The notes under the pieces were generated by a model. That model was not told where the DNA came from and made no database searches. It was given only the letters and a program-made list of their open reading frames with translations. A DNA stretch of 64,000 nucleotides from assembly GCA_951406725.2 (NCBI GenBank), contig OX597823.1, positions 31,682,001 to 31,746,000 on the forward strand, written 5' to 3'. This document shows, piece after piece, positions 19,730-43,193 of this stretch. Made by a program: the position numbers and the translations under genes. The DNA is from Octopus vulgaris. Taxonomy: Eukaryota. How positions within the stretch are numbered: position 1 is the stretch's first letter; every line of letters begins with the position of its first letter.

Positions 19730-20200
19730 AAAGGAAGGCAAGAAATAAATACAAGATAGCCTGACTTTGGAAGATGAAAAAGGTGAAGATAGTGCCAATT
19801 ATTTACATTTTTTACATTTGACGAATATTAGTCCTCATCTTGTTTGTTGTAAATGTTTCAGCTGATATACCCTCCAGCCTTTATCAGGTGTCTTGGGGAA
19901 ATTTCAAACCTGGGTTCTCGTTCCTAAGGTATTTTTCAATGCTGTTGTTATTATTATTATTATTATTATTCAGGTAACTGCCTGGAATCTTGGGGTTAGT
20001 AGACCATGCTCTTAACCACTATGTCATATGCCTGTGGGCATATAGAACAGTGCCAATTATCGTTGGAGCTTTCAGGACAGTATAAAAAGTTATTGAGAGG
20101 AACATAAAGGAAATAGGAACAGAGTGCCCAGTTGAACTGTGGCAAAAAGTTTGCCTCCTTGGCACAGCCACAATCACCAGGAAAGTATTAGGAAGTTGCA
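19730..20200 (+). mobile_element. R4/Dong-like non-LTR element, restriction-like endonuclease C-terminus, split by the 19803-20048 insertion
   Basis: Removing the insert and one TSD restores IA*LWKMKKVKIVPIIVGAFRTV*KVIERNIKEIGTECPVELWQKVCLLGTATITRKVL. This matches the LW..VPIIVGALG..LQK..LLGTA.I.R.VL pattern. Confidence 0.8.
19803..20048 (-). mobile_element. tRNA-headed, hammerhead-bearing module (copy 2), stand-alone insertion with 12-bp TSD
   Basis: The reverse complement aligns end to end with 42649-42900, with the B-box deleted between ATTCC repeats. Flanked by AGTGCCAATTAT at 19791-19802 and 20049-20060. Confidence 0.88.
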
Positions 20201-20308
20201 GGGTACAAATAGCATGGTACTATAGGCAGCAAGCCCACTATGCATGCAAGATTCCAAGAGTTCCAACAAAACCTGAATTAAAAAAATAATTTGAAACCAA
20301 TAATAATA

Positions 20309-20527
20309 ATCCTTTCTGCTGTAGGCACAAGGCCTGAAATTTGGAGGAAGGGATTAAATCAATTACATTGACCCCAATGTATAACGGGTATTTATTTAAT
20401 CCACTTTGAAAGGATGAAAGGCAAAGTTGACATTGGTGGAATTTGAACTCAGAATGTAGTGACGAGCGAAATACTGCTAAGCATTTCGTCCAGTGTGCTA
20501 ACAATTCTGCCAGCTCGCCACCTTAAC

Positions 20528-20569
<42 letters not shown>

Positions 20570-21015
20570 CCTTTCTACTATAGGCACAAAGTTTGAAATT
20601 TTGGGGGAGTGAACTAGTCGAATACATTGACCCCAGCGCATAACACTCATTTTACTGACTCCAAGAGGATGGAAAAAGTCGACCTAGTGAAATTTGAACC
20701 CAACACATAGAGCTTGAAGAAGCACCACAAAGCATTTTGTCCAAGTTGCTACTGATTCAATCAACTTGCTCATCTGACAACAACAATTCCTTTTACTATA
20801 CAAATAAGGCCCGAAATTTTGGGAGAGGGAGCTCCGCGATTATGCTGACCCCAGAGTTCACCTGGTAACTGTTTTAGTGACCCCCAACAGGATGAAAGGC
20901 AAAGTTGTCTTTGACCAGATTCGAACCCAAAATATAAAAGATGTAGCTAAAAACAAAAAAAAAAAAAAAAAAATGATGCATGCACTTAGTTCAGTGCTCC
21001 ACCGATTATTCTACT
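20309..21015 (-). mobile_element. Three head-to-tail SINE B copies separated by (AAT)n/(AAC)n
   Basis: Copies at about 20309-20525, 20568-20775 and 20787-21015, each starting CCTTT(C/T)T(A/G)CT on the + strand. Confidence 0.85.
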
Positions 21016-42230: not shown

Positions 42231-42362
42231 CTTTGAAATTTTAAAACATCTTAGTACAGTAGTCCCTCTCTATATCATGATTCATCAATCACAGTTTATT
42301 ATTTAAGCTTACATTGATTCTTCCATGGTGTTGTTTTGCATTTATGATAACATAAATACATA

Positions 42363-42626
42363 AGAGCAGAGGAACATCACAAAGCTGTGACACGAGGAGA
42401 TATTGATAAATTGAGTATAGCTGATCATGTATGGAAAAATAGAGACCATGTCCCCCTGTGAGATAAAGTTAAAATAATAGACAGAGAACACCACTGGAAA
42501 ATACAAAAATTAAAAGAAGCAGCACATATGCTAGGACACAACAACCTCCTAAGCAGACTGAGTGCAGATATGAGCAGCATATGGGAACTGGTATTAAGGA
42601 AAGAGAGGAAAATATTAGATTTATAA
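42363..42626 (+). pseudogene. Penelope-like element GIY-YIG endonuclease, C-terminal part (Penelope/Poseidon-like)
   Basis: Manual translation: RAEEHHKAVTRGDIDKLSIADHVWKNRDHVPL*DKVKIIDREHHWKIQKLKEAAHMLGHNNLLSRLSADMSSIWELVLRKERKILDL*. This fits the R..EH / S.IA.H.W / H...W..V.I...E..W...KEA.H / W..L pattern of PLE endonucleases. One TGA (42459-42461) lies at a conserved Trp position. Not listed in the ORF track. Confidence 0.85.
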
Positions 42627-42648: not shown

Positions 42649-42900
42649 TGCCCACGGGCATATGGCATAGTGTTTAAGAGCGTGGGGGCTCCTAACCTCA
42701 AGATTTCGAGTTCAATTCCAGACAGTGACTTGAATAATAATAATAATGATAATAACAACATGGAAAAATACCTTAGGAATGAGAACCCAGGTTTGAAATT
42801 TCTCCAAGACACCTGAAGAAGGGTGGAGAGTATATTAGCCGAAATGTGTTAACAACAAACAAGATGAGGACAAATATCCGTCAAGTGTAAATAATGTAAA
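42649..42900 (+). mobile_element. tRNA-headed, hammerhead-bearing module (copy 1), directly 3' of the PLE endonuclease
   Basis: A-box TGGCATAGTGT (42663-42673), anticodon-like loop CT-CCT-AA and B-box GAGTTCAATTCC (42708-42719). Then an (AAT)n spacer and ACAC-CTGAAGA-A-GGGTG..TAGCC-GAAA-TGTGT (42809-42849). Confidence 0.85.
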
Positions 42901-43193
42901 TATATACAAATTATGAAAAATAATAAAAAAATATACAGTACAGTACTGTTTCTTTCTACTTTGCAGATTTTAACCTATCGTGGGGAGTTTTGAAACATAA
43001 CACCTGCGATAGTTAAGGGATTAATGTACTTTCCATCTTTACTGTATTCTTATTAGTAATACCTGAGACTTTAATCCTTAATGCTTGAACACCAATGAGT
43101 TCATATCAATGTCCTTATTTTGAAACTTGGCCTTTGGATTTCTCACCTCCAAAAAACAGCACCTGTGAGAAAACCTTTTACATGCTCAGAATT

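Follow-up and report, generated by a model that had tools for sequence, protein, structure and literature searches.

A tRNA-derived head in the terminal repeat of an octopus Penelope-like element and its possible reading by RNA polymerase III

A short module that joins a tRNA-like head to a hammerhead motif interrupts a decayed host element at positions 19791-20060 of a 64,000-nt stretch of Octopus vulgaris DNA (the window, for the whole of that stretch), and it raises the question of what kind of mobile element it represents. An earlier note, made from the letters alone, had seen in it an independent SINE-like unit. We compared the module with its relatives across the genome and now read the insert as a two-armed insertion of the terminal repeat (pLTR) of a Penelope-like element (PLE), whose tRNA-derived head, with its A and B boxes, likely drives transcription by RNA polymerase III (Pol III). 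Judged on sequence, we give this reading as a whole a probability of about 0.6.

The 12-mer AGTGCCAATTAT occurs exactly twice on the plus strand of the window, at 19791-19802 and 20049-20060, and these exact repeats flank 246 bp. It is present once in a consensus built from 29 relatives of the host element, and a loose form of the motif was matched in 18 of the 29 related host loci, in 16 of those as a single occurrence. The repeats therefore represent a true target-site duplication (TSD), as had been proposed. Excision of the insert and one 12-bp repeat yields a continuous reading frame for the C-terminal restriction-like endonuclease of the host, which we take to be a Dong/R4-like LINE from its motifs. 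The claim that the insert cleanly splits such an ORF is thus borne out by the empty site, which reads through, but the host itself is a dead remnant spanning about 330 bp (19746-20310) rather than an intact ORF. Its left part, the endonuclease end (19746-19802, plus strand), matches the host consensus at 86% and its right part (20049-20310, plus strand) at 80%. In the adjoining stretch 20310-20940 of the window, another short repeat is present on the minus strand as three decayed tandem copies with AAT/AAC runs between them; this repeat is presumably CORE-SINE-like.

The insert aligns by blastn to a second copy on the opposite strand (copy 1, 42649-42902; 82%), and both end at the same point, module positions +251/+254, as the earlier note had it. 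The long arm (19803-20040, minus strand) is a solo pLTR running from -7 to about +253, with the short 3′ end and no tail, and matches the family consensus at 85.8%. On the same strand, a near-palindrome at the head boundary (20029-20040; -7 to +5), the joining site of head-to-head pairs, overlaps the tRNA-derived head (19971-20033), in which the A box (20016-20026) carries two changes and a 12-nt deletion takes out most of the B box. An (AAT)n spacer (19941-19970), recognized from its sequence, is followed by the site of the first ATG of an ORF (19919-19921; +125 in the family), which reads ACG here, and by a minimal type I hammerhead within the coding frame (19848-19892), decayed, as each copy was said to be, with G8 changed and 5 nt lost. 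The insert is a dead copy of the terminal repeat of a PLE. The 8 nt ahead of the head (20041-20048, plus strand) had been taken for the 5′ start of the copy; they are in fact the reverse complement of the end of the element's own 3′ tail, and this inverted stub makes the focal copy a standard two-armed Penelope insertion. The junction of long arm and 8-nt stub recurs at 15 genomic places, and at the 5 of these 15 with a located 3′ end we read TSDs of 10-13 bp, each different.

Copy 1 holds the module in its native place. Here, the 3′ end of a GIY-YIG endonuclease coding region (42360-42626, plus strand; stop codon at 42624-42626) is followed by the pLTR (42649-42902, plus strand; head position +1 at 42656, hammerhead at about 42808-42853), and the stretch 42360-42902 matches the family consensus at 92%. 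The consensus unit, built by majority base, is 2,649 nt long (coverage at least 23, median 54) and runs from the head through (AAT)n, an ATG at +125, the hammerhead at about +154 to +199, the ORF and a 32-nt spacer to the head again. Its ORF of 831 codons encodes a reverse transcriptase (RT) and a GIY-YIG endonuclease (EN), with the first ATG inside the pLTR, upstream of the hammerhead. The RT is matched by RVT_1 (E-values of 5.5e-10 and 2.7e-6), the C-terminal GIY-YIG endonuclease and its CCHH residues were assigned by eye, and neither a GIY-YIG match in Pfam nor any match in a PDB sequence search was found for this ORF. A CX2-5CxxC zinc-finger linker between RT and EN is absent from the ORF and present in a Neptune-type control family; its absence marks Penelope/Poseidon elements, according to the available text of PMC8557442, and membership in this clade is accordingly a putative assignment made from domain features. 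The Neptune-type family (loci L303-L332) gave 943 candidates at first look.

We found the module downstream of ORF sequence at 30 of 30 loci with an ORF-end/head junction, the ORF being truncated at graded lengths. The module tail runs directly into the ORF at 12 of 30 loci chosen by the ORF N terminus (11 of 30 with a stricter motif), and most of the others are truncated ahead of this junction. Among individual loci, one begins at +4 of the head (L188), one is a partial tandem (L198), and one carries a 569-codon open RT+EN frame and then the module (L163). Secondary insertion of ORF-flanking copies could in principle place modules next to coding sequence, and identical junctions argue against it. 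The module is almost certainly the pLTR of an autonomous Penelope/Poseidon-type element. The sequence 3′ of copy 1 (window 42905-42960) resembles that 3′ of the copy at locus L022, and the two copies may share one insertion spot within another repeat.

An independent SINE-like unit would have its own non-autonomous source copies and would be moved in trans by Penelope enzymes. We counted exact patterns on the species' own 2.8-Gb genome, with reversed-pattern controls at 0, and found 5,195 matches to a 35-mer just 3′ of the hammerhead, 738 to a CpG-rich 35-mer of the head and 210 to a 34-mer across the ORF-end/head junction. True copy numbers are much higher, because copies diverge by 4.5-5.8% from the consensus outside CpG. 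The excess of short over ORF-linked copies (5,195 vs 210) is what a SINE would give, as are a sharp peak of 5′ ends and the slightly lower divergence of solo arms (4.5% vs 5.8%, biased by alignment length); rotifer pLTR sequences can moreover act in trans, as the accessible part of PMC3846280 reports. Against this, an identical module stands at both ends of the ORF and holds its start codon, and variants specific to solo copies are absent. In 120 solo arms, taken from the head, the majority base is that of the family at every position tested; in 91 ORF-linked arms the sole difference is at +248, where a short repeat makes the alignment ambiguous. Other differences between the two sets by Fisher tests are mostly gaps tolerated in the longer alignments, and both sets contain the linked variants +64A and +163A (30 of 72 and 15 of 64 ORF-linked copies; among solo copies, about 34 of 119 and 16 of 86). 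We thus found no diagnostic substitution that sets solo copies apart. By analogy with anole Poseidon, solo copies would also be poor templates, as they lack the stretch required beyond the RT start: about 55-60 nt past the start site (ORF nt 172 vs 111-118) are needed there, according to the text available for PMC11167929.

With the inverted tail stub added to these points, an independent unit becomes very improbable, and SINE as the identity of the module is largely refuted. Its tRNA-derived head with A and B boxes is that of a SINE2. The whole module, however, is part of an autonomous unit rather than a non-autonomous unit distinct from its partner, and in place of a fixed 3′ end with a LINE-type tail and single-arm insertion we find two 3′ ends inside the ORF and TSDs mainly at two-armed insertions. 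What we took as possible counterparts of the module were the octopus SINE 'Twin' or the OR1/OR2/OK SINEs. Annotation pipelines will read thousands of these pLTR copies as SINEs.

We investigated the anatomy of insertion in 92 of 100 listed 3′-anchored matches (every one from contig C1) together with 60 of the 738 matches to the head; after 5 duplicates and 38 short-arm or locus-edge entries had been dropped, 109 of 152 were used for TSD analysis. An adjacent inverted arm accompanies 53 of the 92 3′-anchored arms sampled. The 3′ ends cluster at +246-253 and +275-284 (the second point at about +279), and a short end is paired with a long one in 49 of 57 two-armed insertions (P = 3e-8). TSDs are mostly 10-15 bp long, and a TSD of at least 10 bp is seen in 37 of 57 two-armed vs 4 of 52 one-armed insertions, and in 33 of 1000 shuffled pairs; that one-armed copies mostly have no detected TSD is partly because their boundaries are harder to call. 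The pairing of short and long 3′ ends matches both the optional tail described on one inverted pLTR in rotifer PLEs (PMC3846280) and the two internal RT start sites of anole Poseidon, for which priming inside the ORF was shown in vitro (PMC11167929), each as given in the text available. The family supplies in vivo numbers for the Penelope mechanism: duplications track two-armed insertions, and the arms use different priming sites (49 of 57). As far as the available text of the two papers goes, EN+ Penelope/Poseidon elements (anole Poseidon PAc, PMC11167929; rotifer Pen2a, PMC3846280) share with ours the single ORF with RT and C-terminal GIY-YIG, the pLTR overlapping the ORF start, the minimal hammerhead near the start codon, the optional 30-40-nt tail on one arm, the inverted 5′ arm and the partial tandems; TSDs of 9-10 bp are reported for Pen2/Pen2a (PMC3846280), compared with mostly 10-15 bp here. 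Two sampled loci about 856 kb apart on contig C1 (L219, L220) share one two-armed insertion together with its 12-bp TSD, and represent a segmental duplication or an assembly duplicate.

The hammerhead had been reconstructed as a minimal type I motif from two decayed copies, with its CG deduced from CA by CpG decay, and about 270 genomic arms confirm this consensus. The family majority reads CTGA(T/A)GA-A-GGCTG-N10-CAGCC-GAAA-CG-TT-GTGT, with a full catalytic core, 5-bp stems I and II and a CG palindrome; among 278 arms, 77% have the C and 63% the G, and the deduced CG is therefore right. The core is kept in 131 of 262 arms, in 74 of them together with the CG, and core variation concentrates at the free position 7 (22%). 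Compensatory double changes number 3 over 10 stem pairs in 261 arms; little covariation is to be expected of dead copies that decay neutrally from few masters. Rfam, which the earlier note had suggested searching, gave no hammerhead match, either among the best 150 of the 356 entries of one scan, mostly microsatellites, or with two mutated single copies at an E-value of 10; minimum free energy folding of single hammerheads gave no significant z-scores. The lower divergence of the core (3.5% vs 5.3%), uncorrected for A-rich make-up, was not used as evidence, and a candidate second family with a variant hammerhead proved to be a mutated copy of the same family.

The inserted copies span the hammerhead cleavage site, in line with uncleaved RNA being the main substrate of anole Poseidon, as stated in the accessible text of PMC11167929. 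Sampled multi-copy loci are mostly inverted pairs or ORF-linked rather than retrozyme-type tandem monomers. In the parts available of the reports on metazoan PLE hammerheads (PMC4209133) and non-LTR retrozymes (bioRxiv 10.64898/2026.07.22.740005), the ribozymes have the same extra unpaired base before stem II, G-C as the first pair of stem II, a 5-bp stem I, palindromic positions 15.2-16.2 with no real stem III, and mostly dispersed single copies. Unlike those systems, our module has a tRNA head, lacks tandem monomers and has U as the cleavage-site base of its predicted ribozyme. The Schistosoma repeats Sm-alpha and Sj-alpha likewise join, by description, tRNA-derived sequence to a hammerhead in a short high-copy repeat; these are non-autonomous and SINE-like in the available text of PMC2770079, whereas the focal module forms part of a coding element, as its terminal repeat. 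Another type of minimal hammerhead, whose stem II has 4 bp and whose stem I also differs (L057, minus strand, near 1734; L179:5244), sits in a pyrimidine-rich repeat adjoining copies of the focal element, and a hammerhead-like motif of a third kind, its stem II 6 bp long, lies in another dispersed repeat (L044, L168:5555, L288).

If the module is a pLTR, where does its template begin? Among 37 arms reaching +10, 27 have their 5′ end between -18 and +10, with 1.65 expected from a background loss of 0.0025 per nt, which is equal in body and ORF. The first 30 copies, ranked by full-length match, were excluded from these statistics, and the background rate omits an excess of ends in the AAT run (19 of 71) that probably reflects insertions of later date and expansion of the repeat. 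A sharp pile-up at the head thus means that truncation is not random, as the earlier note had maintained. The note had also expected such a peak to favor a Pol III-derived SINE; the peak is there, yet a pLTR transcript starting at the head predicts it equally, and it cannot separate the two. Among 60 head-anchored copies, 47 end at -16 to +1 (44 at -6 to +1, and 3 fold-backs at -13 to -16), and the ends of the remaining 13 are spread from -36 to -719. The 5′ ends of arms are dispersed over -7 to +10 and do not fall on one base. A few ends at +195-198, adjoining the hammerhead cleavage site, were discounted as cleavage products, at least one of them being a deletion between repeated GTTAA words.

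In the family consensus head, the A box (+8) and the B box (+53) both have canonical form, in agreement with the tRNA-like head described earlier. Compared with 30 tRNA genes of six isotypes from the same genome, it matches best Arg(TCG), at 49 of 77 positions, and Arg(TCT), at 51 of 79, with Ala not far behind at 47 of 76. The head no longer folds as a tRNA and its acceptor stem is degenerate; ARAGORN called no tRNA in it, even at relaxed thresholds, nor did the Rfam scans recognize the head among the matches listed. The sense strand of the 2,649-nt unit has no run of four T (T4) and no 6-nt window with five T. Permutation of synonymous codons leads one to expect 2.95 T4 runs (P = 0.027), or 4.6 with Phe codons freed (P = 0.004), and base shuffling 4.7 (P = 0.008); under a dinucleotide shuffle the expectation falls to 2.5 ± 1.4 and 0 is reached, and G4 runs are likewise absent (base-shuffle P = 0.036). 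The T4 deficit is hence modest. A Neptune-type PLE of the same genome, our sole PLE control, has 8 T4 runs in 2,002 nt with 5.8 expected (in frame, 5 vs 4.1) and shows no A box within that recovered length, while a Dong-like control fragment is uninformative, with none in 886 nt and 1.3 expected. In individual copies, which are not independent, the T4 rate is 0.45 per kb for the focal element vs 4.2 for the control. For comparison, 23 of the 30 tRNA genes have a T4 or longer run within 30 nt downstream, exactly T4 in 9. A tRNA-like promoter combined with the lack of a Pol III stop signal suggests that the element is read by Pol III, a use that we regard as slightly favored, the T4 absence itself being suggestive of such reading.

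The head could instead be the remnant of a captured tRNA or SINE that is now silent, with transcription by Pol II, either from a promoter of the pLTR itself or by read-through. The pile-up of 5′ ends would then arise from RT stalling or fold-back, either of which could make the peak because a palindrome and a structured head sit there. Indeed, exact head-to-head junctions centered on the palindrome number 206, many of them counted on both strands, and rotifer PLEs carry palindromes at inverted pLTR junctions together with a TATA/Inr-like promoter motif, described for Pen2a in the available text of PMC3846280; the modest T4 statistics also leave room for this explanation. It is, however, at odds with 18 of the 60 head-anchored copies, which, ending at 0 or +1, include no more than the 3′ half of the palindrome. 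In the master consensus neither box departs from the canonical form, and a T4-free sense strand is not predicted by Pol II transcription, the control PLE having the expected number. We consider a silent head with Pol II transcription rather unlikely. RNase P cuts pre-tRNAs at +1, and read-through transcripts might be cut at the tRNA-like head by this or a similar enzyme to give a template with its 5′ end at +1. The commonest single 5′ end is indeed +1 (14 of 60 head-anchored copies), but in 12 of 60 the end lies at about -6/-7, ahead of such a cut. As the degenerate acceptor stem, the negative ARAGORN result and the T4 absence, which cleavage leaves unexplained, also speak against it, we hold processing of this kind to be very unlikely.

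Under the favored Pol III reading, the transcript would start at about -7 to +1, at the head. The element's enzyme may prime reverse transcription inside the ORF at two 3′ points, as in anole Poseidon, and copying back from these points to the 5′ end of the transcript would then yield a solo pLTR of fixed length. Each start point would likely contribute one cDNA, the two being synthesized on opposite strands of a staggered cut and then linked head to head, in many cases via the head palindrome, a process that would generate the 10-15-bp duplication; in the focal copy the second arm measures only 8 nt. As the sense strand offers no T4, Pol III would continue across the ORF and enter the following pLTR of a partial tandem, and this read-through may give rise to the ORF-bearing copies. 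Uncapped Pol III RNA is a poor mRNA, and the protein may therefore need another transcript.

The focal element belongs to a known class and has one unusual trait, a tRNA-like head on an element with no Pol III stop signal. To our knowledge, an autonomous retrotransposon is generally assumed to depend on Pol II. The same has been argued for the autonomous partners of Pol III-type TRIMs in the available text of PMC10886601, where the TRIMp3 elements Cassandra, Helenus and Ajax are short (311-1,263 bp) non-coding LTR elements, unlike the autonomous 2.65-kb PLE described here. Nor do the accessible parts of PMC11167929 and PMC3846280 describe for Penelope/Poseidon PLEs the tRNA-derived head, the 5′ pile-up or the T4-free sense strand of the focal pLTR. 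In a full-text search assessed by titles and starts of abstracts, outside subscription papers, Repbase and Dfam, we found no description of a PLE with a tRNA-derived pLTR; 190 Penelope-like families are listed, undescribed, in the available part of PMC13282606, and the focal family may already be catalogued. If true, a PLE that pairs a tRNA promoter with a coding strand free of terminators would contradict the Pol II requirement, and would raise the questions of how its transcript is translated and whether the hammerhead contributes to this.

The tRNA genes used for comparison show a feature of their own. About 9 of the 30, from four isotypes (L276, L280, L287, L291, L293, L294, L298, L301 and L302; 60 nt of 3′ sequence examined), carry the same short repeat right after the T-rich stretch. 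This repeat may be an insertion targeted to gene ends, or the loci may be tRNA-repeat chimeras.
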